Shown in pieces: positions 22,328 through 64,000 of a DNA stretch of 64,000 nucleotides. The stretch lies in the IMG/VR virus record IMGVR_UViG_3300037010_001838; one strand, written 5' to 3'. The stretch's first letter is position 1, and the number at the start of each line of letters is the position of its first letter. This DNA is from a virus (lineage: Duplodnaviria; Caudoviricetes). The translations under genes were made by a program, and so were the position numbers. The notes under the pieces were generated by a model. That model worked only from the letters and a program-made list of their open reading frames with translations, was not told the DNA's origin and searched no databases.

Positions 22328-22540
22328 TTAATTTGAAACTGTTAGAAGAGCGGGGCACCACTCAGGTGCTCTATCTCTTTCATACCAACAATTTGAAATT
22401 ATTTTATTGTTAACTCCACAGACTACTTGTATTCCTCGGTCATATTCTTCTGGCGTATTACAGTAGTAATCAGTTATTAATTGAGTACATCCTTTACAGT
22501 GATATGTAATTGTCATTGATGGTCCAAAATTGTTTTCCAT
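22328..22540 (-). CDS. hypothetical Cys-rich protein
   Basis: Coupled to guaC stop (TAATG). Confidence 0.55.
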   Translation of the reverse strand: MENNFGPSMTITYHCKGCTQLITDYYCNTPEEYDRGIQVVCGVNNKIISNCWYERDRAPEWCPALLTVSN

Positions 22541-24798
22541 TATCTCACCTTTGTTGTTATGTCTTCATACACCCGATTGTGAGTGTTATTCACTCTAATA
22601 AACGTTGCACGTTTTGAAAGTTCCTTTAGTGTTTTACTTCCTGTATATGTACACGTACTCCGAACCCCACCTAGAATATGGTTAATTGTATCTTTAACTG
22701 GTCCTCGATATGGAAGTTCGATTGTTCGTCCTTCACTCGAGCGATATTCAGCCAAACCCCCACTGTGAGCTTCCATTGCTGTAGATGAACTCATCCCGTA
22801 GAATTGGACAAACTTACGCTCTACTTCCAAACACTCAAGAGAAGAACCATCAATATCTTTTATAACTTCGTTAGTTTTATACCACTTCGAACTTACTTCA
22901 CCTCCACCTTCGTCGTGTCCAGCGAACATTCCACCACTCATTACAAAATCAGCGCCACCTGCAAATGCTTTTGCAAAGTCTCCAGGAGTATTACATCCCC
23001 CATCGGAACACAACCTTCCGCCTAATCCATGAACAGCATCAGCACATTCTATAATTGCACTCAATTGGGGAAAACCAATTCCAGACACTAACCTTGTGGT
23101 ACAAACTGAATTGTGAACAATCATGTTGTTTGCAATGAAACTGTGGGTTGGGTGATCAATTTCCAAATCGTAGACGGGAACCTCACACTCTGTTGGGTTT
23201 TCAATTTCAAGTATTTTTATAACCTGATAATGTGAAAGATGTCTTTTTTTGTGAGAGGTCGCCAGAAAACTTCGATATCCATCTTTTCGGGGGTGTTGCA
23301 TAGGATATGAAGACCGTTTCCCGTTGTTTGACATATTTGGGAAACTCCCAAATATATTAAACGTAATCCAGCTGAATAGTTCCATGAGTTGTTGTGACGT
23401 GTTGTTAAAATTAACCTGGCCTTCTTTTGTAATGTGGCCGTCACTATCAACTAATCCATCATACAATCCCCGCAAATATTCTGTGTTGGTGCACATGAAT
23501 TGGTCTGGAAGATGTTTTTCATGGAACTTTCCAAACTGTTGGAAAAATTCTTCCCACTGTTTACTATACAAGGTGATCGTGGTCAACGTTTTCCGTTTAT
23601 TAGAACATACTGGGATTTTACCCGTAACCATCTCAACAGCAGACATTAATTTAACTACATGATGTTGATCTCTTGAGTTTATATACCACTCAACACCTTC
23701 AGAAAAACTTGAAAATCCCCTGCTGTTGGTTCCTTTTGTTTTTCTTGAAGTACCATCTCCAAGAAAAAAACCAAACACATAACCAGTGTTGTAATCAGAT
23801 TTAACAATAGTGTTATAATTATCCAAATGCTCTTCTCGTATAAAATAACTTGAAATATCGATATGAAAACTATCTGGTGTTTCCCAATTAATATTGATGG
23901 GAAGTAAAGCTACATCTTGTCGTATTTCACTCACCGGTTTCCATTTTATTTTTTCCTCTCCCAAACGAGTAGGAACCTCCAGCGCCTTTTTATACCCTTT
24001 GCTTTGTAGTGTTGTAATACTAATAGAATTTAGATCACCTACGTAACAATGATGGTCAGGAGTTAGTCTCAACGGAATGTTGAAGTGATCATGTTTTATC
24101 TGTGTTGTTTTCTTATATCCTGTGGTATAAGCGGATAACACAGTTGCTGGTTCTCCAGTACTCGTAATTATACGATCCCCAGGTTGAACATCTTTGATAT
24201 TTTTATAAACACCACTGGACATTAAAATTCGAGCATCACCCGTTAAACACCCACTGCCTACTCCAACCTTGATGATATCTGCACCAGATAATACTAATTG
24301 TTCTGCCATTTCAGGTGTAACAACGTTACCAACAAGAAGAGTTGTGTTTGGATATTTGTCTCGTAATTTAGTTACAGTAGATACAAAAGTTTCTGTATAC
24401 CCATTAGCAACGTCAACACACACATTTAAAGGAGGTCTGCCAAACATTTCGATGAAGTGTTCAAGCTTATCGAGGTCACTTTGAGACGTTCCAACTGAAT
24501 AAAAAATATATTGTTCAAATGAGGGATTGTTTTTATAAAAATCTACAAGTTGAACTACTGGATAATGTTTATGTAATGCTACCATCATTTTAAATTCAGC
24601 AAATCGTTCCGCCATTTCAAAAGTTCCAACTCCATCCATATTTGACGCTATAATTGGAATACCAGTCCATTGTTGGTGAGAGTATTTGAATGTGAACGAC
24701 CTTTCAAGAGACACGTCTTTGCGTGAAGTTAGTGATGACCTTTTTGGAATAAGTAGCACATCACCAAAATCCAATTTAACATCCTCTACTATTCTCAT
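22540..24798 (-). CDS. guaC: GMP reductase containing an intein
   Basis: KLDFGDVLLIPKRS, IIASNMDGVG, VDVANGY, KVGVGSG|SVCTTR, FAGGADFVMSGGMFAG, FYGMSS. Confidence 0.92.
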   Translation of the reverse strand: MRIVEDVKLDFGDVLLIPKRSSLTSRKDVSLERSFTFKYSHQQWTGIPIIASNMDGVGTFEMAERFAEFKMMVALHKHYPVVQLVDFYKNNPSFEQYIFYSVGTSQSDLDKLEHFIEMFGRPPLNVCVDVANGYTETFVSTVTKLRDKYPNTTLLVGNVVTPEMAEQLVLSGADIIKVGVGSGCLTGDARILMSSGVYKNIKDVQPGDRIITSTGEPATVLSAYTTGYKKTTQIKHDHFNIPLRLTPDHHCYVGDLNSISITTLQSKGYKKALEVPTRLGEEKIKWKPVSEIRQDVALLPININWETPDSFHIDISSYFIREEHLDNYNTIVKSDYNTGYVFGFFLGDGTSRKTKGTNSRGFSSFSEGVEWYINSRDQHHVVKLMSAVEMVTGKIPVCSNKRKTLTTITLYSKQWEEFFQQFGKFHEKHLPDQFMCTNTEYLRGLYDGLVDSDGHITKEGQVNFNNTSQQLMELFSWITFNIFGSFPNMSNNGKRSSYPMQHPRKDGYRSFLATSHKKRHLSHYQVIKILEIENPTECEVPVYDLEIDHPTHSFIANNMIVHNSVCTTRLVSGIGFPQLSAIIECADAVHGLGGRLCSDGGCNTPGDFAKAFAGGADFVMSGGMFAGHDEGGGEVSSKWYKTNEVIKDIDGSSLECLEVERKFVQFYGMSSSTAMEAHSGGLAEYRSSEGRTIELPYRGPVKDTINHILGGVRSTCTYTGSKTLKELSKRATFIRVNNTHNRVYEDITTKVR
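23110..24249 (-). mobile_element. 380-aa intein with LAGLIDADG homing endonuclease
   Basis: Begins CLTGD, ends IVHN followed by Ser; internal FGFFLGDG and LYDGLVDSDG motifs. Confidence 0.92.
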
Positions 24799-27289: not shown

Positions 27290-27318
27290 TTGACTTTTAT
27301 AAATAAGTCATATATACT
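27290..27318 (+). promoter_or_regulatory. tRNA-operon promoter 1
   Basis: TTGACT-17-TATACT, identical 29 nt at 50045 and 63401; contains TATAAATA and TGACTT/AAGTCA inverted repeat. Confidence 0.9.
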
Positions 27319-27354: not shown

Positions 27355-27450
27355 ATGAACACAAACGGATTAGGTTATTGTCTATCACTCGGGTCTTTAT
27401 CCATATTGGATAAGAGCCAGGTCGCCGTTTGGGGAATTACCAAGATGTAA
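27355..27450 (+). CDS. leader (attenuator) peptide 1, MNTNGLGYCLSLGSLSILDKSQVAVWGITKM
   Basis: AAAGGA SD; 31 codons between promoter and terminator; codons 5-18 are only Gly/Leu/Tyr/Cys/Ser/Ile. Confidence 0.8.
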   Translation: MNTNGLGYCLSLGSLSILDKSQVAVWGITKM

Positions 27451-27536: not shown

Positions 27537-27655
27537 GGGCATGCGGCGAAGTTGGAGAGTCGCGGCGGACTGACTAGAGAGCATTGGTTTTCCAGTGTTC
27601 TCGACTAAATCCGTTCCCTCGTGGTGAGTAGGTTCGATTCCTACCATGCCCACCA
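27537..27655 (+). tRNA. tRNA-Tyr(GTA) with 33-nt insertion in the anticodon
   Basis: GGGCATG/CATGCCC-A-CCA; GCGGA-CTG|insert 27573-27605|TAAA-TCCGT; long variable arm; GGTTCGATTCC. Confidence 0.8.
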
Positions 27656-27930: not shown

Positions 27931-28061
27931 AGTTTGTCCTGTTGTGTGTTGTTTGGAACAATCGCTTTGTTGGTGGTATCTGGCTATTCAAACGAACCAT
28001 AATTCGATACACAAGAAAACAGTTAGAACGTACATTTATAAAGATTAAAACATGATAAATT

Positions 28062-28144
28062 GCCCTGGTGACAAATGCAAATTGGTACAGCTACTGCGCT
28101 AAGAACGCAGGTTTTTACGGGTTCGACTCCCGTCTGGGGCACCA
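28062..28144 (+). tRNA. tRNA-Leu(AAG)
   Basis: CTGCG-CTAAGAA-CGCAG; GCCCTGG/CTGGGGC-A-CCA. Confidence 0.85.
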
Positions 28145-28152
28145 AAAATATT

Positions 28153-28509: not shown

Positions 28510-28594
28510 CGGCAAGTGGCTTAGGTAAATTGGTACAGCCCCTGGATTTAAGTTCCAGTGCTCTTGGTTGGGTTCGAATCCCCCTTGCCGACCA
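28510..28594 (+). tRNA. tRNA-Leu(TAA), short variable arm
   Basis: CTGGA-TTTAAGT-TCCAG; CGGCAAG/CTTGCCG-A-CCA. Confidence 0.75.
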
Positions 28595-28696: not shown

Positions 28697-28780
28697 CCGC
28701 AGGTGGCTTAGGTAAATTGGTACAGCCCCTATCTTCAAACGGTAGTGCTTTTGTGGGTTCGAATCCCTCCCTGCGGACCA
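28697..28780 (+). tRNA. tRNA-Leu(CAA), short variable arm
   Basis: CTATC-TTCAAAC-GGTAG; paralogue of 28510; CCA. Confidence 0.75.
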
Positions 28781-28792
28781 GACAGTTAAATT

Positions 28793-28876
28793 GCCCCCGG
28801 TGACAAATGCAAATTGGTACAGCTACTGCGCTAAGAACACAGGTTTTTACGGGTTTGACTCCCGTCTGGGGCACCA
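28793..28876 (+). tRNA. tRNA-Leu(AAG), degenerate duplicate
   Basis: Near copy of 28062-28144 with anticodon-stem mismatch and T-loop TTTGACT. Confidence 0.6.
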
Positions 28877-28881
28877 AAATT

Positions 28882-35364: not shown

Positions 35365-35436
35365 GCTCAATTGGCTTAATGGTAAAGCAGGTGCTTCTAA
35401 AACACTTGACCGTCGGTTCGATTCCGACATTGGGCA
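35365..35436 (+). tRNA. amber suppressor tRNA (anticodon CTA)
   Basis: GCTCAAT/ATTGGGC-A; canonical D and T arms; GGTGC-TTCTAAA-ACACT puts CTA at 35397-35399. Confidence 0.75.
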
Positions 35437-35443
35437 CCGAGAA

Positions 35444-36179: not shown

Positions 36180-37056
36180 CAGAACGTTTCATCAGAAACA
36201 ATTTAAAAGATAAAGAATTACGCGCTTGTGCAAAGTAACCAACAGCGATGTTGTGAAAGCGGTAGGTCCTACAACTACCGCGCCCTGTAAGGGGTACAAA
36301 CAAGCAAGCCTGACCTACTCCGAAAGGAGCTGATTATCGCCAACGGTAGTCATATGAGGGAAGTTAGGGGTGTGGAAAGAACGAATGTTTACAAGCCTGC
36401 TCTGCAGGGAACTTGGGCATTTGGAGAGTAACGGGTTGTGCCGACCTCACGCCTACACAAACTAGCCATCTCAAAAGGTAAAGGGTAGTACAGTGGTCCG
36501 AACCCGCAAGTAAGGGCTGTTGTGCAAGTTGAGGGGGTTTTGGTACCTGTAATAGGGTGTCACGATTCCTGAAAACTGGTTGAGTAGTCGGCAGATGAAA
36601 AACATGAGGAGTGTGGTATTTTTATACTCAAAAGGTATGAAATCCACTGGAAACGCACTTCTTGGTAGGTTTAACAATGTTAGGGTTAACAGCCCATATA
36701 AATTTGGATTATATTACATAAAACGCAAAGACGTTTCCAGTGTAAAGTGAAAATGGCTTAATCCTTCAGCCGCAAGGTAATGAAGGCGTCCAAAACTCGC
36801 AAGGTCGAGGATGTTGAAAGAAAGTCGCACGCAGAGAGTTAGCGCTCTTGTACAGCTCGCAAGGTTGGCGGTAGACAGATAATCGAGTAGCTTTACATGT
36901 TGGTGGAAAAGCAACCACTTAAAAAATGCAGTCATGTTGATAGACATAGTTGTGCGAAAGCTGATTATGTGGATAAGAGAAGAACTCTAGCTGTAGCAGG
37001 TGATGAGATAATGTCTCGAAGGTATCAATAGTATAGGTTTAATCTCAACCTTATAC
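36180..37056 (+). ncRNA. large structured RNA, GOLLD-like
   Basis: About 880 nt non-coding, many GNRA-capped hairpins (CTCC-GAAA-GGAG, GCC-GCAA-GGT, CTC-GCAA, TGC-GAAA-GC); terminal hairpin with TAATCTC loop; next to phage tRNAs. Confidence 0.65.
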
Positions 37057-38129: not shown

Positions 38130-39632
38130 GTGAGCAAAGAATTTGTGGATGCCCTTTCTATTACAACCAATGTAGCGCACACGGAAAATGGTGCTGTTGC
38201 ATTTGATACAACCAAATCAGCTATGTTGGATTTGTTTGCACAAGGGGGTGCACTCCGCAATCGTGCTGATGATGAAATTCTTCGTTTGTTTTCAAAAGCT
38301 TATGCAGAAAATGCATTGTTTGCCACTCGTGCTATGTTCTATTTCAGGGACGCTCGTGGTGGTCAAGGTGAACGCGATACATTTAGAAAGCAATTAAAGT
38401 GGTTGATTAACGTTAACCCTGACGCTGTCCGTAAAAACATTAAACTTATTCCATACTTTGGACGTTGGGATGATTTGTATGTGTTATTTGATACAGAACT
38501 TGAAACAGATGCAATTACACTAATCTTTACACAGATTGCCGAAGACACGGCATCTGAACATCCCTCGTTGCTTGCAAAATGGTTGAAAAGTGAAAACGCT
38601 TCTTCAAAAGAAACGAAACGACTTGCAACAAAAACTCGTATAGGTCTTAAATTAAGTTCCAAAGCATATCGCTTGATGTTGAGCACTCTTCGTAAGAAAA
38701 TTAACATCGTTGAACGGTTGGTGTCTGCCAATCAGTGGGATAGTATTGAATACAGTGCCGTTCCTTCTCAAGCTAACTTGTTATATGGGAAAGCTTTCTT
38801 CACGCATGACGCTGAACGCCGTAAGAAATTCTTGGATTCTTTAAAGACTGGCGAAAAGAAAATCAATGCGAGTGTTCTTTTTCCATATGAAATCGTCCAT
38901 AAAGCACTTACGGTGGGCAGGAACACACCACAACACGAACGCCAACTCATAGATGCGTTGTGGGACGCTCTTCCAAACTATATTGGAGATAAACAAGAAA
39001 ATGCTCTTGCTGTAGTTGATGTGTCTGGTTCTATGGCTGGTCTTCCATTGGAAGTTGCTATTTCGGTTGGAATGTATTTGGCTGAACGTAACACTTGTGA
39101 AGCTTATCATAACAAGTTCATTACTTTTAGCTCTACACCTCAACTACTTAAAATTCAGGGAGCTGACCTTGTTGAAAAAATAGCTAATATGAATAGTTCT
39201 GCATGGGAAATGAATACAGATATTCAAGCTGTGTTCCGTTTGATTCTTACTGTTGCCAAACAAAACAAGTTAGCACAATCTGAATTACCACAGAAGTTGT
39301 ATATCATTTCTGATATGGAATTTGATGCCGCTATAAGCAACGCTAGATATTCTTATAAGAATCAATGTCGGGGTGTGGTTGACGAAAAATTTTTCCAAAC
39401 AATTTCTAAAGAATTTAGTGAGTGTGGATATACAATGCCCAATTTGGTGTTTTGGAATGTTGATGCTCGGAACCAACAGTTTCCAATGAGTATGGATGAG
39501 CGTGGTTTTCAAATGGTTAGTGGATGTAGTCCGTCTATCTTTAAGCACACAATAGGTGGAGAATTTATGTCTGCTTATGATTTGATGCTTGATGTTATTA
39601 ACAGTGAACGTTATCAACTCGTTACAATTTAA
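38130..39632 (+). CDS. DUF2828 / TROVE-like vWA domain protein (Ro60-related)
   Basis: TENGA, RDARGGQGER, GRWDDL, AKWLKSE, MIDAS VVDVSGSM, FITFS, ISDMEFD, LVFWNV. Confidence 0.85.
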   Translation: MSKEFVDALSITTNVAHTENGAVAFDTTKSAMLDLFAQGGALRNRADDEILRLFSKAYAENALFATRAMFYFRDARGGQGERDTFRKQLKWLINVNPDAVRKNIKLIPYFGRWDDLYVLFDTELETDAITLIFTQIAEDTASEHPSLLAKWLKSENASSKETKRLATKTRIGLKLSSKAYRLMLSTLRKKINIVERLVSANQWDSIEYSAVPSQANLLYGKAFFTHDAERRKKFLDSLKTGEKKINASVLFPYEIVHKALTVGRNTPQHERQLIDALWDALPNYIGDKQENALAVVDVSGSMAGLPLEVAISVGMYLAERNTCEAYHNKFITFSSTPQLLKIQGADLVEKIANMNSSAWEMNTDIQAVFRLILTVAKQNKLAQSELPQKLYIISDMEFDAAISNARYSYKNQCRGVVDEKFFQTISKEFSECGYTMPNLVFWNVDARNQQFPMSMDERGFQMVSGCSPSIFKHTIGGEFMSAYDLMLDVINSERYQLVTI

Positions 39633-50127: not shown

Positions 50128-50226
50128 ATGATTTTTACGACTTTCTTTACAGCGTTTACAACCCCTGAGGCATGGCATGCCCCAGAGATGGCTGTGTGCG
50201 CTCTTGAGGAAGGTTGGAAAAACTAA
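50128..50226 (+). CDS. leader (attenuator) peptide 2, MIFTTFFTAFTTPEAWHAPEMAVCALEEGWKN
   Basis: GGAG SD; 32 codons; codons 3-22 are only Phe/Thr/Ala/Pro/Glu/Trp/His/Met. Confidence 0.8.
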   Translation: MIFTTFFTAFTTPEAWHAPEMAVCALEEGWKN

Positions 50227-57331: not shown

Positions 57332-58294
57332 GTGTCTCTTTCAAATGTTAAGATTTTCGCTGGAAATTCAAATATTGAATTCGCCACAAAGATAGCAAGT
57401 AGGATGGGGTTAGCACTCGGTAAGGCTAAAGTAAGTAAGTTCAAAGACGGTGAAACATCTGTTGAAATTGAAGAGTCGGTTAGAGGAAGTGTTGTATTTG
57501 TTATTCAGTCAACGTGCAATCCTGTTAACGACAATTTAATGGAATTATTGACAATGACAGACGCATTAAGAAGAGCTGCTGCAAAACGCATTATTGCAGT
57601 TGTTCCTTATTATGGATATTCCAGACAAGATAGGCGTCCAGGATTTAGCCGTGGACCAATTACTTCCCGTCTTGTAGCAGATGTGATTCAAGCAGCTGGT
57701 ATTGACCATTTAGTATCGGTTGATATTCATTCTCTTCAACAACAAGGGTTTTTTACGATTCCCTTTACTAACATTTCCGCTTCCGTTGAATTCATTAAAG
57801 ATATCAGAATGATGTATCGTAAAGAAAAAGAAGAAAAAACACTTATGGTTGTTTCTCCTGATATCGGTGGAGTATTACGTTCTAGACAAATTGCAGAACA
57901 GTTAAACGGTGACACTCAATTAGCTATTGTGGATAAACGTCGCCCACGAGCTGGTGAATCAGAAGTTATGAACATCATCGGTGACGTAGAGGGAAAAGTT
58001 TGTATTATGGTTGATGATATTGTAGATACAGCTGGAACTTTATGTAAGGCTGCGAAATCTTTAAAGGACCATGGTGCTCTTAAAGTTGTTGCTTATGCCA
58101 CTCACCCTGTATTATCAGATAATGCTTACGAGAATTTAACTCATTCAGTGTTAGACGAATTAGTAGTAACAGATACAATTCCACTAATAGGCAATGTTCC
58201 AAATAACATCAGACAATTATCAATTAGTGATTTGGTTGCAGAAACTATACGAAGAATGAGGTCCAAGCAGTCTGTTAGTCAAATATATGTTTAA
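57332..58294 (+). CDS. prs: ribose-phosphate pyrophosphokinase
   Basis: FKDGETSVEI, YGYSRQDRR, DIHS, VSPDIGGV, VDDIVDTAGTL, THPVLS. Confidence 0.96.
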   Translation: MSLSNVKIFAGNSNIEFATKIASRMGLALGKAKVSKFKDGETSVEIEESVRGSVVFVIQSTCNPVNDNLMELLTMTDALRRAAAKRIIAVVPYYGYSRQDRRPGFSRGPITSRLVADVIQAAGIDHLVSVDIHSLQQQGFFTIPFTNISASVEFIKDIRMMYRKEKEEKTLMVVSPDIGGVLRSRQIAEQLNGDTQLAIVDKRRPRAGESEVMNIIGDVEGKVCIMVDDIVDTAGTLCKAAKSLKDHGALKVVAYATHPVLSDNAYENLTHSVLDELVVTDTIPLIGNVPNNIRQLSISDLVAETIRRMRSKQSVSQIYV

Positions 58295-60616: not shown

Positions 60617-60989
60617 TTAGAATTCAATTTCAAGTGCGTTTGCAAACACGTTGGCATCTGCAATTGCGCGTGTAGAAAGGTGTTGAAGTTTGATCACAAA
60701 TACTCCAGATAAAATAACAGGATGAAGCAATCATCTCACATTCACCCCATAAAGTCAACAATCACTTTTTCAACGGTAAAAACACAACGGTAAAGGATGT
60801 ATTCCAGAGTATGGTTTTGTTCCTGATGCTTTTTCCACTCATCGTGAAACTTCCACTCAAGAGGTTCACGCGATAAGCGGTGGACGTTCTTACCGTCGTG
60901 CGCCATTACTCTGTAACCTCTTCTTCTGTGAACAGTACCCAAGTTCCTGGTGCGTATGCAACAGCAACCAGGCCAGATTCCATCAAAAT

Positions 60990-61088
60990 GTTTTTGAGAA
61001 TTATCTCACAAGGAATACCCTTTCATCTAAAAGGTGAAGGGTATTACGAAACTGACTTTAAAAACAAGTAGTCAATCGCGTTCTTTGT
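60990..61088 (+). repeat. 99-bp perfect direct repeat, copy 2
   Basis: Identical to 59601-59699. Confidence 0.95.
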
Positions 61089-61608
61089 AAAATGTAAGGT
61101 GCTTTGTTTTTAACACTTCAACAAAACTTGGAGATACTGCCCAAGAAGGTGTAACTCGTTCATCGTGAAAATGTGTAGCACCGTGTGTTATATCTGTACG
61201 TTGTTGAATTACAAATGCGTGCATAATACTTGCAGCAATTTCTTGAGCACTGGCCCATTTATCAGATTCCGTGTTTATGTCTTTATCCCCCTCACATTGA
61301 TATGAGAATTGACACACGTGCTTTCCGGACCGAGTTTTGGTTGTTTGATGTGTAACTGCACACACTGTTTTAGGATAGTCTGAATCTATTACACGATTTA
61401 TTACTACGTTTGCAACAGCAAGTTGTGATTTTTTATAATCTGCAGCTTCAAAATATATTGTTTCAGCTAAACAGTATCGTTGTTTGTCAATAGAGCTTTT
61501 ATTTGTATCAATAAGTTGTTGTAAATTGTTCTGTTTTTCTTGGTATTCAGAACCCGCGTAAACTGTAGATGTAACTAACAAAAAAATGGACAATAGTATC
61601 CCTCTCAT
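61072..61608 (-). CDS. cell wall hydrolase (SleB / Hydrolase_2)
   Basis: CLAETIYFEA, AVANVVINRV, YP.TVC.V, CQFSY.C, GATHFH. Confidence 0.9.
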   Translation of the reverse strand: MRGILLSIFLLVTSTVYAGSEYQEKQNNLQQLIDTNKSSIDKQRYCLAETIYFEAADYKKSQLAVANVVINRVIDSDYPKTVCAVTHQTTKTRSGKHVCQFSYQCEGDKDINTESDKWASAQEIAASIMHAFVIQQRTDITHGATHFHDERVTPSWAVSPSFVEVLKTKHLTFYKERD

Positions 61609-61800
61609 GTTTTCTCCTTAATTAAGAAAATGTATCATCACAAAATCTGATGATGAGAAGGGGCTTGTTGGAGCCCTCTGTTGAAGTATATGGTAATTAT
61701 ATTTTATATTTTATATTTATACAACTAATAAATATGTTGACTTTCATTGGGGAATGTGTATGATTCACTCACTCGAATTAAGATTTAATAAGGAAAATGT

Positions 61801-62106
61801 ATGACGACAAACACAGAAGTATATGATGAAGCTGAATTGGCTGAATTTACAGAACGAGCAGAACGCGAGTCTGGTGTAAATGAAATTCGATCAAAGGTGT
61901 TCCAGGGAACGAAAGAAGAAGCAGCAAAATTGGCCGACCCAAACAAATTATGTCAAGACTGTGAATTACCAATTCCTGTTGAACGACAGTTGGCATATCC
62001 AACAGCAAAATTTTGCATTGATTGCCAAGAGTGGCACGATGCAACAGAAGAACGCAAACGTCGTATGACTGGAACTGGATTTAATGTTTTGGGAGTATTC
62101 GGATGA
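61801..62106 (+). CDS. TraR/DksA C4-type zinc finger protein
   Basis: CQDC..PIPVERQLAYP.AKFCIDCQ; N-terminal DEAELA. Confidence 0.85.
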   Translation: MTTNTEVYDEAELAEFTERAERESGVNEIRSKVFQGTKEEAAKLADPNKLCQDCELPIPVERQLAYPTAKFCIDCQEWHDATEERKRRMTGTGFNVLGVFG

Positions 62107-62366
62107 GTTGTCATTGGAATCATCGATTGGTTCAGTGTGAAAGTGGTGGTGAAGTTTACTTTGAAATTCGTGAAGTATACTACAACAATGCTGGAAATGT
62201 TACAGCAATGACCGAAGACGCTATCGGAGTTGGAGGATACAGTGTTGAAGAAATTCTTGTGACTCTAGAACGAATGAAAGTTGCGTGTTCTAAAGAAGTC
62301 ATTATTGAAAAAGATTTTGTATACGATAAGTGGGATGATGAATTTGAACACGGAGATGATGATTAA
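62103..62366 (+). CDS. conserved phage hypothetical protein
   Basis: WNHRLV...EIREVYY motif. Confidence 0.7.
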   Translation: MSCHWNHRLVQCESGGEVYFEIREVYYNNAGNVTAMTEDAIGVGGYSVEEILVTLERMKVACSKEVIIEKDFVYDKWDDEFEHGDDD

Positions 62367-62426
62367 GACAGCAACGTATCCGACTCAAACTCCTGACACA
62401 ATAAAGCATGTTCTGCTATTAATGAG

Positions 62427-62849
62427 TTGAAAGTTAAACTAAACAATGAGGGAGGACCAGATGAGTTTTGGAACGAATTTTTAGTATCTCTGTCAACAGC
62501 ATCCATGTTTGTTGCTAACAATCTTGAACGGAGATATATGGAGATAACTGAAACTGAACGTCAGATTTTATTGAGAGGTCTTCTCTATTCCATAAAAATG
62601 AGTAATAATTTGATTAAAACTCATAAAGACATAGCGCTGTGGATTGCGTTAGAAGATTTTATCGGAGATAAAGATTTCTCTTTCCGAATAGCTCTAACAG
62701 TGCCGAATGCTTGTGAATATTCAAGAGACGCATCAGGAATTCTCCATTTATATTCTGAAGATAGTGCGCACCGTTTGTTAACAAGGAAAAGAATGTCTTT
62801 TTATGTTCAAGGACGAAGAAGTGAATTTCTTAAAAGGGATGTAATATGA
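62427..62849 (+). CDS. hypothetical protein
   Basis: 140-aa ORF. Confidence 0.55.
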   Translation: MKVKLNNEGGPDEFWNEFLVSLSTASMFVANNLERRYMEITETERQILLRGLLYSIKMSNNLIKTHKDIALWIALEDFIGDKDFSFRIALTVPNACEYSRDASGILHLYSEDSAHRLLTRKRMSFYVQGRRSEFLKRDVI

Positions 62850-62993
62850 GCTGCCCAATGTGCGACGATGGTCATTTTCCAAACAAAGTAATGATTCCTG
62901 TAAAAGACAAAAAGACAGGCGAGTGAATTTGGTTGAGTGTGAAATCAGAAACTTATTCTAAATTAGAAAAATCAATTCAAGAAATATATAAAA

Positions 62994-63296
62994 ATGGCAG
63001 AAAATGATTTATGTCCATTGTGTGGAAGAACACTGGGTGACATTAATGTGGATTTCCACCATTTAATTCCAAAGACGTTTAAAGGGAAAGATGGAGTTAT
63101 GCTCCACCGTGTTTGCCATAGATATATCCACGCCACATTCAGTGAACGTGAATTGGCTAATTATTATCACACGATTGAACGTTTATTGGAGTATGAAAAC
63201 ATCCAAAAGTTTGTTAAGTGGATTACAAAAAAACCACCTGAATATTATGTAAGTGCTAATGAAAGCATTGAACGAAAAAAGAAAAGAAAAAGATAA
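62994..63296 (+). CDS. HNH endonuclease
   Basis: CPLCGR...HHLIPK...LHRVCHRYIH. Confidence 0.85.
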   Translation: MAENDLCPLCGRTLGDINVDFHHLIPKTFKGKDGVMLHRVCHRYIHATFSERELANYYHTIERLLEYENIQKFVKWITKKPPEYYVSANESIERKKKRKR

Positions 63297-63400
63297 ATCG
63301 TTAGTTTAAAAATACTATATCTTTTAAGGAGACATAAGATGTCAACGACGTATATGATGCTCCAAGCACCAGATGTGTTCTTGAGATTGATAAATAAATG

Positions 63401-63429
63401 TTGACTTTTATAAATAAGTCATATATACT
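63401..63429 (+). promoter_or_regulatory. tRNA-operon promoter 3
   Basis: Identical 29 nt to 27290 and 50045; further shares TGTATCAACAGTTGAGCAAAGTGCT with copy 2. Confidence 0.9.
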
Positions 63430-63587
63430 TGTATCAACAGTTGAGCAAAGTGCTTAACTAAATAGTTAGGTGTTGAAAGCTAGGACGTCCCGGTACTAAC
63501 AAAACATAGAAATATGTGGGTGCGTAGAAGCGTATATTAAGCAGACGATAAAGTAGTAAACACCATTTAATTTAAGGAGCTTTACAA

Positions 63588-63683
63588 ATGTTCGTAACCA
63601 GACAACAACAGAGTATTAGTATCATTCGCCGACGCCAAGTGCGTCGCGACAGTGATATTATTATGTCTGGAGGCTGGGTATAG
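63588..63683 (+). CDS. leader (attenuator) peptide 3, MFVTRQQQSISIIRRRQVRRDSDIIMSGGWV
   Basis: AAGGAG SD; 31 codons; codons 5-25 are only Arg/Gln/Ser/Ile/Val/Asp. Confidence 0.8.
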   Translation: MFVTRQQQSISIIRRRQVRRDSDIIMSGGWV

Positions 63684-63705
63684 CATAAAGCTAAATTCTT
63701 AAAAA

Positions 63706-63744
63706 GAAAAACCCAGTTTCCAAAAGAGACTGGGTTTTTCGTTT
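63706..63744 (+). terminator. attenuator terminator 3
   Basis: GAAAAACCCAGTTTC/GAGACTGGGTTTTTC; 5' arm also pairs with TGGAGGCTGGGT (63668-63679). Confidence 0.9.
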
Positions 63745-63747
63745 TAC

Positions 63748-63767
63748 AACTGTTCATTAAAAATTTG
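63748..63767 (+). promoter_or_regulatory. boxA-like site 3
   Basis: AACTGTTCATTAAAAATTTG. Confidence 0.65.
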
Positions 63768-63776
63768 AAAATATAT

Positions 63777-63849
63777 TGGGAAGAAGCCGATTGGTCGAGG
63801 CGGTGCGTTCTGAGCGCATTCGTATAGAGTTCGATTCTCTACTTCCTAG
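63777..63849 (+). tRNA. tRNA-Gln(CTG)
   Basis: TGGGAAG/CTTCCTA-G; GTGCG-TTCTGAG-CGCAT. Confidence 0.85.
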
Positions 63850-63857
63850 CCTTTAAT

Positions 63858-63931
63858 TGGCCCGTGGTGTAGCGGTAGCACAGAAGATTTTGAATCTTCT
63901 AGTCCAAGTTCAACTCTTGGTGGGCTTGCCA
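63858..63931 (+). tRNA. tRNA-Gln(TTG)
   Basis: GAAGA-TTTTGAA-TCTTC; G73 CCA. Confidence 0.88.
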
Positions 63932-63944
63932 TTTGAAGTATAAT

Positions 63945-64000
63945 ACCGTCGTAGCTCTCGGGGAGAGCATCTCACTGTCTATGAGATTCAGGTGGGTTCG
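63945..64000 (+). tRNA. tRNA-Asp(GTC), truncated by window end
   Basis: GCTC/GAGC D-arm; TCTCA-CTGTCTA-TGAGA; start of T-arm GTGGGTTCG. Confidence 0.8.

Follow-up and report, generated by a model that had tools for sequence, protein, structure and literature searches.

A Codon-Matched Leader Peptide Probably Gates a tRNA Operon of an Uncultured Jumbo Phage by Transcription Attenuation

Introduction

Why phages carry tRNA genes, and how these genes are regulated, has been debated for decades; both codon compensation and the replacement of tRNAs destroyed by defence systems have been proposed. A locus at the end of a 64,000-nucleotide stretch of phage-like DNA (IMG/VR virus record IMGVR_UViG_3300037010_001838, ~37% GC; "the window" in the following) poses the question in a concrete form. 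Here a short open reading frame (ORF), leader 3, and a terminator hairpin are placed between a promoter and a row of tRNA genes that runs across the window edge. Why should a phage put a stop signal in front of its own tRNA genes, and why are 21 consecutive codons of the short ORF decodable by the tRNAs encoded behind it? Our answer is that leader 3 is probably a ribosome-mediated leader-peptide transcription attenuator of the trp/ilv type, with which an uncultured jumbo phage couples the transcription of its third tRNA operon to the decoding capacity sensed by the leader. We find at this locus a Shine-Dalgarno (SD) sequence with a short promoter-proximal ORF, codons matched to the tRNAs, an intrinsic terminator and, in silico, an antiterminator that depends on the position of the ribosome.

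Results and Discussion

Anatomy of the leader 3 locus

The elements of the locus are given below in their order along the DNA. The last tRNA gene is cut by the window edge, and its continuation was read from a close relative, IMG/VR contig 3300035181_001013, of which L004 and L009 are stretches.

63401-63430, + strand: sigma70-type promoter, TTGACT-17-TATACT, within the 30-nt block TTGACTTTTATAAATAAGTCATATATACTT
63439-63459, + strand: hairpin in the 5' untranslated region (UTR), common to leader 2
63469-63564, + strand: lineage-specific insertion in the leader-3 5' UTR, closed by GGTGTT/AACACC
63574-63579, + strand: SD sequence AAGGAG, with the ATG 8 nt further on
63588-63683, + strand: leader ORF 3, MFVTRQQQSISIIRRRQVRRDSDIIMSGGWV, 31 codons and a TAG stop
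63600-63662, + strand: sensor zone, codons 5-25, 21 consecutive codons decodable by the unit-3 tRNAs
about 63609-63669, + strand: internal coding hairpin formed by the sensor zone of leader 3
63668-63679, + strand: region 2, the 5' arm of the antiterminator, TGGAGGCTGGGT, in the last ORF codons (27-31)
63711-22, + strand: region 3, ACCCAGTTTCCA, the core of the terminator 5' arm
63707-63739, + strand: intrinsic terminator hairpin (5' arm 63707-20, 3' arm 63726-39, U-run to 63745)
63748-63767, + strand: boxA-like element AACTGTTCATTAAAAATTTG
63777-63851, + strand: tRNA-Gln(CTG), called by ARAGORN
63858-63931, + strand: tRNA-Gln(TTG), called by ARAGORN
63945-64000, + strand: 5' part (56 nt) of tRNA-Asp(GTC), cut by the window edge and whole in the relative (L004 7054-7128)

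The 30-nt promoter block is present in three mismatch-free copies in the window, at 27290, 50045 and 63401, while 0 are expected by chance; a fourth copy with one mismatch lies ~5.6 kb past the window edge in the relative. At least four promoter-leader-tRNA units are present in the genome, with a different codon set in each, and 25 tRNA genes are called in the window with ARAGORN at default settings (31 at the relaxed threshold). The leader-3 ORF starts ~150 nt past the -10 element, a distance that shrinks to ~50 nt in variants without the insertion. Its terminator consists of a 14-bp hairpin of ~-18 kcal/mol followed by a U-run (63707-63745), and the first tRNA gene begins 31 nt further on. 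Between this terminator and the first tRNA we found no strong, conserved promoter. The leader peptides have no Pfam or PHROG family match. A 21-codon ORF with a good SD sequence (MSTTYMMLQAPDVFLRLINKC, 63340-63405, + strand) runs into the -35 box of the leader-3 promoter and stops there.

The codons of leader 3 mirror the anticodons behind it

An initial annotation, made from the letters of the window alone, had read leader 3 as a codon-matched attenuator, a reading that the tRNA content past the edge, the ribosome-footprint folds and the covariation in a relative described below now support. It had noted that codons 5-25 specify only Arg, Gln, Ser (AGT), Ile (ATT/ATC), Val and Asp, and the sequence bears this out: the codon list comprises Gln CAA/CAG, Arg AGA/CGN, Ser AGT, Ile ATY, Val GTR and Asp GAY. 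Its assignment of the first three downstream tRNAs as Gln(CTG), Gln(TTG) and Asp(GTC) is likewise correct. The two Gln genes are called within the window, while the edge-cut gene, whose anticodon loop reads CT-GTC-TA, is the complete Asp gene in the relative.

We scored decodability with conservative wobble rules. All 17 of the leader-3 codons 5-21 can be decoded by the tRNAs of unit 3, and none of the 17 by those of unit 1, of unit 2 or of unit 4. The other leaders score 13/17 (leader 1), 15/17 (leader 2) and 8/17 (leader 4) with the tRNAs of their own units, the signal of leader 4 being a compact run, NNVNVNNK. When the four leaders are assigned to the four arrays in all 24 permutations, the true assignment is the best with a score of 68, and the next best reaches 53. 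The codons that unit 3 can decode make up 24.2% of the codons in the long ORFs of the window, which gives p^21 ~ 1e-13 for an uninterrupted run of 21. Indeed, among 45,953 21-codon windows in the six frames of the window, the longest unit-3-decodable run outside leader 3 is 9. The RNA of the leader itself (63588-63750) folds with -59.4 kcal/mol, corresponding to z = -7.46 against shuffled sequences. Because of this fold, and because of a run of 21 codons against a maximum of 9 elsewhere, the codon match and structure of leader 3 are more than chance.

The tRNA genes beyond the window edge

The sharpest claim of the initial annotation concerned DNA that it had not seen: the continuation should hold tRNAs for Arg (CGN and AGA codons), Ile(GAT), Ser(GCT) and Val. 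We could follow this up in contig 3300035181_001013, which was retrieved by its promoter block, is 98.9% identical to the window over 60635-64000 and then extends beyond the edge. With 178,796 bp at a CheckV completeness estimate of 52%, the relative belongs to a jumbo phage. Megablast and blastn searches with the region and a tblastn search with a 1044-aa ORF against 50,697 phage records gave no useful cultured relative.

All of the predicted tRNAs are found in unit 3 of the relative. Past the edge, the order is Asp(GTC), a weak third Gln(TTG), Arg(TCG), Val(TAC), Ile(GAT), Asp(GTC), Arg(ACG), Ser(GCT) and Arg(TCT); Arg(CCT) follows 2.2 kb beyond Arg(TCT). Ser(GCT) is called only at the relaxed ARAGORN threshold and is backed by a 36.7-bit Rfam match and by an orthologue in a second contig, 3300020048_000168. 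No isotype foreign to leader 3 appears among the unit-3 calls. The same Arg(TCG, ACG, TCT), Ile(GAT), Ser(GCT) and Val(TAC) genes are present in contigs of run X1, a microbial-mat metagenome in which 98% of the sampled words of the window occur and which is a possible source sample. These contigs cover all 7.5 kb of the continuation with ~98.5% identity at a depth of ~180-210, and the indels listed relative to contig 3300035181_001013 sit between tRNA genes, 8 further ones lying outside this list. At L009 4563/4564 (~4.4 kb past the window end), upstream of Arg(CCT), contigs of the runs X1, X2 and X4 carry 268 letters more than the IMG/VR contig.

Lys and Asn tRNAs had been expected outside the window, under another leader or in a separate unit. 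Both are indeed located behind the fourth promoter, in a unit at L004 12470-13143 (~5.6-6.3 kb past the window end) that has its own leader, MFDSTKPIFINNVNVNNKRSHAEALTVEIKLII, and terminator, followed by Val(GAC), Asn(GTT), Lys(TTT), Lys(CTT) and Lys(TTT). The accompanying statement that Lys is absent from the window is not strictly safe, however: ARAGORN calls an 84-nt tRNA-Lys(CTT) with a poor anticodon stem at 28697-28780 (+ strand), a doubtful gene that the Rfam tRNA model does not detect. Ambiguous tRNA-like repeats lie near it at 28056-28147, 28510-28594 and 28787-28879.

Two mutually exclusive helices

The initial annotation had proposed that region 2 (63668-79) and region 3 (63711-22) can form 12 contiguous pairs, two of them G-U. 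The coordinates are correct, and we calculate -19.3 kcal/mol for the duplex. Since region 3 is also the core of the terminator 5' arm, the 2:3 helix and the terminator are mutually exclusive. Equilibrium folding of the full leader cannot show such a switch and we therefore used truncated co-transcriptional folds, in which the transcript ends at nt 137, where region 3 has just been made, and a ribosome footprint of 30 nt is masked. In these folds, 11-12 of the 12 pairs of the 2:3 helix form when the A site is stalled at codons 5-22. The number drops to 8 at codon 24 and to 5 at codon 25; with the ribosome anywhere between codon 26 and the stop, no pair is left. The codon-matched zone (5-25) hence coincides with the stall zone that leaves the antiterminator free, and in the footprint model a ribosome at the end of the leader-3 ORF occupies region 2. 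Until region 3 has been transcribed, codons 3-8 hold region 2 weakly in a 1:2 element. The strong hairpin of the coding region, formed largely from Arg codons, could act as a pause site.

The layout is shared by all seven leaders of the window phage and of contig 3300020048_000168: the ORFs have 31-34 codons, the terminators -17.5 to -18.7 kcal/mol, and 17-23 nt separate the stop codon from the terminator 5' arm. In leaders 1, 2 and 4 (27355-27450, 50128-50226 and L009 6221-6322) the antiterminator 5' arm lies in the middle of the ORF, unlike in leader 3.

These features bear on an alternative in which the switch would respond to direct tRNA-RNA contact, as in a T-box, or to a leader-binding protein, rather than to the position of a ribosome. 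T-box leaders likewise switch between terminator and antiterminator according to tRNA status. The region 63380-63780 gave no match to a T-box or any other riboswitch in Rfam at E <= 10, and an SD sequence with ATG, a fixed frame length (31-34 codons in seven leaders) and an in-frame codon match would be meaningless for a T-box. Because of the missing model match and these frame-dependent features we reject this mechanism, which we regard as extremely unlikely.

One observation concerns the stop codon. Of all the leaders, leader 3 alone has a TAG stop, and the window encodes a well-formed tRNA with a CTA anticodon (35365-35438, + strand; ARAGORN "Pyl", Rfam tRNA 63.9 bits) that looks like an amber suppressor. 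Speculatively, suppression would take ribosomes into the terminator. A general recoding of TAG was considered and rejected, since ORF lengths hardly change when TAG is counted as a sense codon.

An independent relative keeps composition and pairing

Contig 3300020048_000168 from IMG/VR (56 kb, ~76% identical in the leader-2 region) contains three such units, including a second version of leader 3. This orthologue reads MFAVSRTQQIIIDRQRQVRRDSDSISSEGTGSC, and the array behind it comprises Gln x3, Arg(TCG), Ile(GAT), Asp, Arg(ACG), Ser(GCT), Arg(TCT), Ser(TGA), Val(TAC) and Arg(CCT). The orthologous leader has 19 consecutive codons that its own array can decode, against a null maximum of 9, and its cross-match with the other array is 2/25. 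In a hand alignment, 4/5 of the substitutions between the two sensor zones stay within R/Q/S/I/V/D. Judged from this comparison, it is the composition of the leader that is conserved rather than its sequence.

The pairing regions have changed in concert. Regions 2, 3 and 4 read CUGGG/CCCAG/CUGGG in the window and CCGGG/CCCGG/CCGGGG in contig 3300020048_000168, all three arms being altered together. These changes were read directly from the sequences, since a 2-nt indel puts the helices of the two orthologues out of register. When folded in the same way, the orthologue displays the same dependence on the position of the ribosome. Metagenome scans with the promoter and with the leader pattern gave no further example, and the viral scan with the leader pattern returned contig 3300020048_000168 only.

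This comparison also speaks to the idea that the short ORF and its hairpin have nothing to do with tRNA control and form a small independent transcript, either a small RNA (sRNA) or the mRNA of a micro-protein, while the tRNAs are made from other promoters. The strong terminator (~-18 kcal/mol) and a weak promoter-like match (9/12) overlapping the boxA region would fit such an arrangement, and a trans-acting role of the leader RNA, like that of rnTrpL (PMC7968998), is conceivable. The weak downstream promoter match is, however, not conserved in units 1 and 2, and the peptides, of which the composition and not the sequence is conserved, belong to no protein family. Moreover, an independent transcript gives no account of the 21-codon run, of its unit-specificity in the four units and in contig 3300020048_000168, of the conserved overlap between ORF end and antiterminator, or of the successful tRNA prediction. 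We consider this explanation very improbable and reject it because of the unit-specific codon match, the conserved antiterminator overlap and the lack of a protein family.

The insertion in the 5' UTR is dispensable

An extra structured segment closed by GGTGTT/AACACC had been annotated between the promoter and the leader. Its closing arms (63469-74 and 63559-64) do pair in the minimum free energy (MFE) structure. The structure as a whole is not significant: the UTR (63437-63590) is no more stable than shuffled sequences (z = -0.73), and the insertion has no Rfam match even at E <= 10. The insertion is present as a single copy in the 179-kb contig 3300035181_001013, and it is absent from the orthologous leader in contig 3300020048_000168 and from leaders 1, 2 and 4. 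A low-depth strain variant in run X2 has the whole UTR swapped for the 31-nt UTR type of leaders 1 and 4 (joint 225 to 380). On all these grounds we reject the segment as a functional structured RNA and take it to be a dispensable, strain-variable insertion.

A boxA-like element follows the terminator

The element AACTGTTCATTAAAAATTTG, together with two variants, has three occurrences in the window, which are found only after the three attenuator terminators (0.05 expected). Its core TGTTCATTAAAAA at 63751-63 resembles the boxA consensus of rrn operons, which we take to be about GCTCTTTAACAA and to be located just downstream of the promoter or leader of the untranslated operon. The same motif (ACTGTTCATTAAAAATTTG) is placed directly between promoter and first tRNA in five otherwise unrelated phage contigs of IMG/VR (L023, L025, L027, L030 and L031). 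These arrays have no leader ORF or terminator between promoter and boxA, and from their sequences they appear to be ungated. We read the motif as a candidate for the usual antitermination site of untranslated tRNA operons and as a putative site of Nus recruitment, and the attenuator as a module that was probably inserted upstream of it in the window phage. The arrays of the other phages share with unit 3 the boxA-like motif directly before the first tRNA, and they differ in that an attenuator module stands between promoter and motif only in the window phage.

How the switch would work

What the sequences show is the anatomy, the match of codons and anticodons, the tRNA genes that were predicted and then found, and mutually exclusive helices that covary. 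We infer from this that leader 3 is translated, that ribosomes can stall in it, that read-through follows, and that a natural signal slows decoding. In such a scheme the host sigma70 RNA polymerase would start at the promoter at 63401-30, and a ribosome would load at AAGGAG/ATG and read 21 codons drawn from exactly those that the downstream tRNAs decode. With fast decoding, the ribosome would reach the last codons and the TAG and cover region 2, allowing the terminator at 63707-39 to form and transcription to stop before the tRNAs. With slow reading of any of the listed codons, it would stall upstream of codon ~23, region 2 would pair with region 3 and the terminator would be prevented. The polymerase would then pass the putative boxA site, which should recruit the Nus antitermination complex, and transcribe the array of Gln, Gln, Asp, Arg, Val, Ile, Asp, Arg, Ser, Arg and possibly Arg-CCT. 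The accumulating tRNAs would close the switch again, which would amount to a demand-driven negative feedback.

The natural trigger may be a host tRNA pool that is ill-suited to the codons of the phage, or it may be the cleavage of tRNAs by host defences. An alternative that concerns only this trigger, and not the mechanism, holds that the switch mainly senses host attack on tRNAs, by anticodon nucleases for example, and that each unit is an alarm-and-repair circuit. According to one proposal (PMC10264068), phage tRNAs stand in for host tRNAs that defence nucleases have cut, and four independently gated sets would fit such a selective replacement, the Asn/Lys unit with its three Lys tRNAs being an example. 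In mycobacteria, moreover, tRNA-Cys cleavage by VapC4 is reported to act via small ORFs (Barth et al. 2021, PNAS, cited in PMC10264068). The sequence does not separate this trigger from a plain shortage of host tRNAs for the codons that the phage prefers, and we regard attack as the main signal as possible but rather unlikely.

Several points weigh against leader 3 being a codon-sensing attenuator. The first is that the terminator is always part of the MFE structure of the complete transcript, whatever the ribosome position in the masked equilibrium folds. Since the terminator wins every full-transcript fold, antitermination must be kinetic, as in trp. Secondly, the simple footprint model does not alone explain termination with a ribosome at the stop codon of leaders 1, 2 and 4; in the folding model these leaders may need an additional 1:2 element. 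The covariation comes from two lineages only, and no RNA-seq run that we searched carried the leader-3 region. Arg(CCT) lies within unit 3, yet AGG is missing from leader 3. Amino-acid starvation would trip the same switch with no gain for the phage. Finally, the tRNA prediction was partly easy, as a near-complete phage tRNA set must hold the missing isotypes somewhere; the part that was not easy is the grouping into units and the separate leader for Asn and Lys.

Relation to known systems

With its SD sequence and its short promoter-proximal ORF rich in regulatory codons, leader 3 resembles the leaders of thr (Thr/Ile) and ilvGMEDA (Ile/Val/Leu) and also trpL, hisL and pheL. As in these amino-acid operon attenuators, the 5' arm of the terminator can pair alternatively with the closing stretch of the ORF, a ribosome that completes the ORF would block the antiterminator, and several amino acids would be sensed at once. 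The nearest counterparts of leader 3 are the multivalent thr and ilv leaders. The targets differ, as the known leaders control biosynthetic enzymes and the phage leader would control tRNAs. Furthermore, the former use runs of one or two amino acids, whereas leader 3 has ~12 codons for six amino acids that are matched to anticodons. The phage element is also set apart by being phage-encoded, by its four paralogous copies with different codon sets, and by the boxA-like element behind it. Matches to Rfam leader families stay below threshold, with 27.1 bits for Thr_leader (RF00506, threshold 55) at 63649-63743 and 29.8 bits for His_leader (RF00514, threshold 49) on leader 4. The leaders are hence not members of these families and the resemblance is architectural only.

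The pheST attenuator of E. coli, with its Phe-rich leader pheM, supplies a component of translation on demand through codon-specific stalling. There the target is a synthetase and one amino acid is sensed, while in the phage the targets would be the tRNAs themselves and the sensor covers many isotypes. T-box riboswitches, too, tie tRNA status to the choice between terminator and antiterminator upstream of translation-related genes; they bind uncharged tRNA directly and without translation, and leader 3 has no T-box features. Cys-rich small-ORF attenuators of mycobacteria are the subject of a bioRxiv preprint (10.1101/834739). The toxin VapC4, which cleaves tRNA-Cys, is reported to be linked mechanistically to attenuation at such ORFs. 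As proposed for leader 3, a ribosome stalled in a short ORF signals whether a given tRNA or amino acid is available and switches on the genes downstream, and the signal can arise from the cleavage of a tRNA. Unlike leader 3, the mycobacterial ORFs are encoded by the host, respond to one amino acid only and govern Cys-related genes rather than the supply of tRNA.

In the full-text literature that we searched, which most subscription journals lie outside of, we found no published case of leader-peptide attenuation of tRNA genes, in a phage or elsewhere. What would be new is the use of tRNA genes as the target, the matching of codon by anticodon, the presence of at least four separately gated tRNA operons and the pairing with a boxA-like element. 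More generally, we lean, with some reserve, towards the view that large phages carry a modular, codon-resolved sensor of decoding capacity, in which each tRNA operon is on only when ribosomes stall on the codons that its tRNAs read; this would give homeostasis of the tRNA pool and a selective answer to tRNA-cleaving defences. If this is true, such a sensor would mark a kind of regulation that has no described counterpart among the tRNA genes of any organism. A leader-peptide attenuator whose codons mirror the downstream anticodons would mean that the phage monitors how fast each individual codon is read and produces tRNAs as they are needed; classical attenuation, which responds to the supply of amino acids, would thereby be extended to that of tRNAs. 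A practical rule would follow, namely that leaders predict tRNA content, as they did across the window edge. The design may also serve as a synthetic sensor of tRNA availability.

Other features of the window

Two further RNAs are associated with leader 1. The first gene after it, tRNA-Tyr(GTA) at 27537-27655 (+ strand), has an anticodon loop interrupted by a 33-nt insert (ARAGORN intron mode) and fits the TAT codon of that leader. The extended tRNA region behind leader 1 also contains a GOLLD RNA (RF02032) at 36606-37051 (+ strand), which scores 198.8 bits against a gathering score of 150. Among the protein-coding genes, an IMP dehydrogenase gene at 22540-24798 (- strand) is split by an intein with a LAGLIDADG domain. 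A DUF2828/DUF7788 protein is encoded at 38130-39632 and a PRPP synthetase at 57332-58294.

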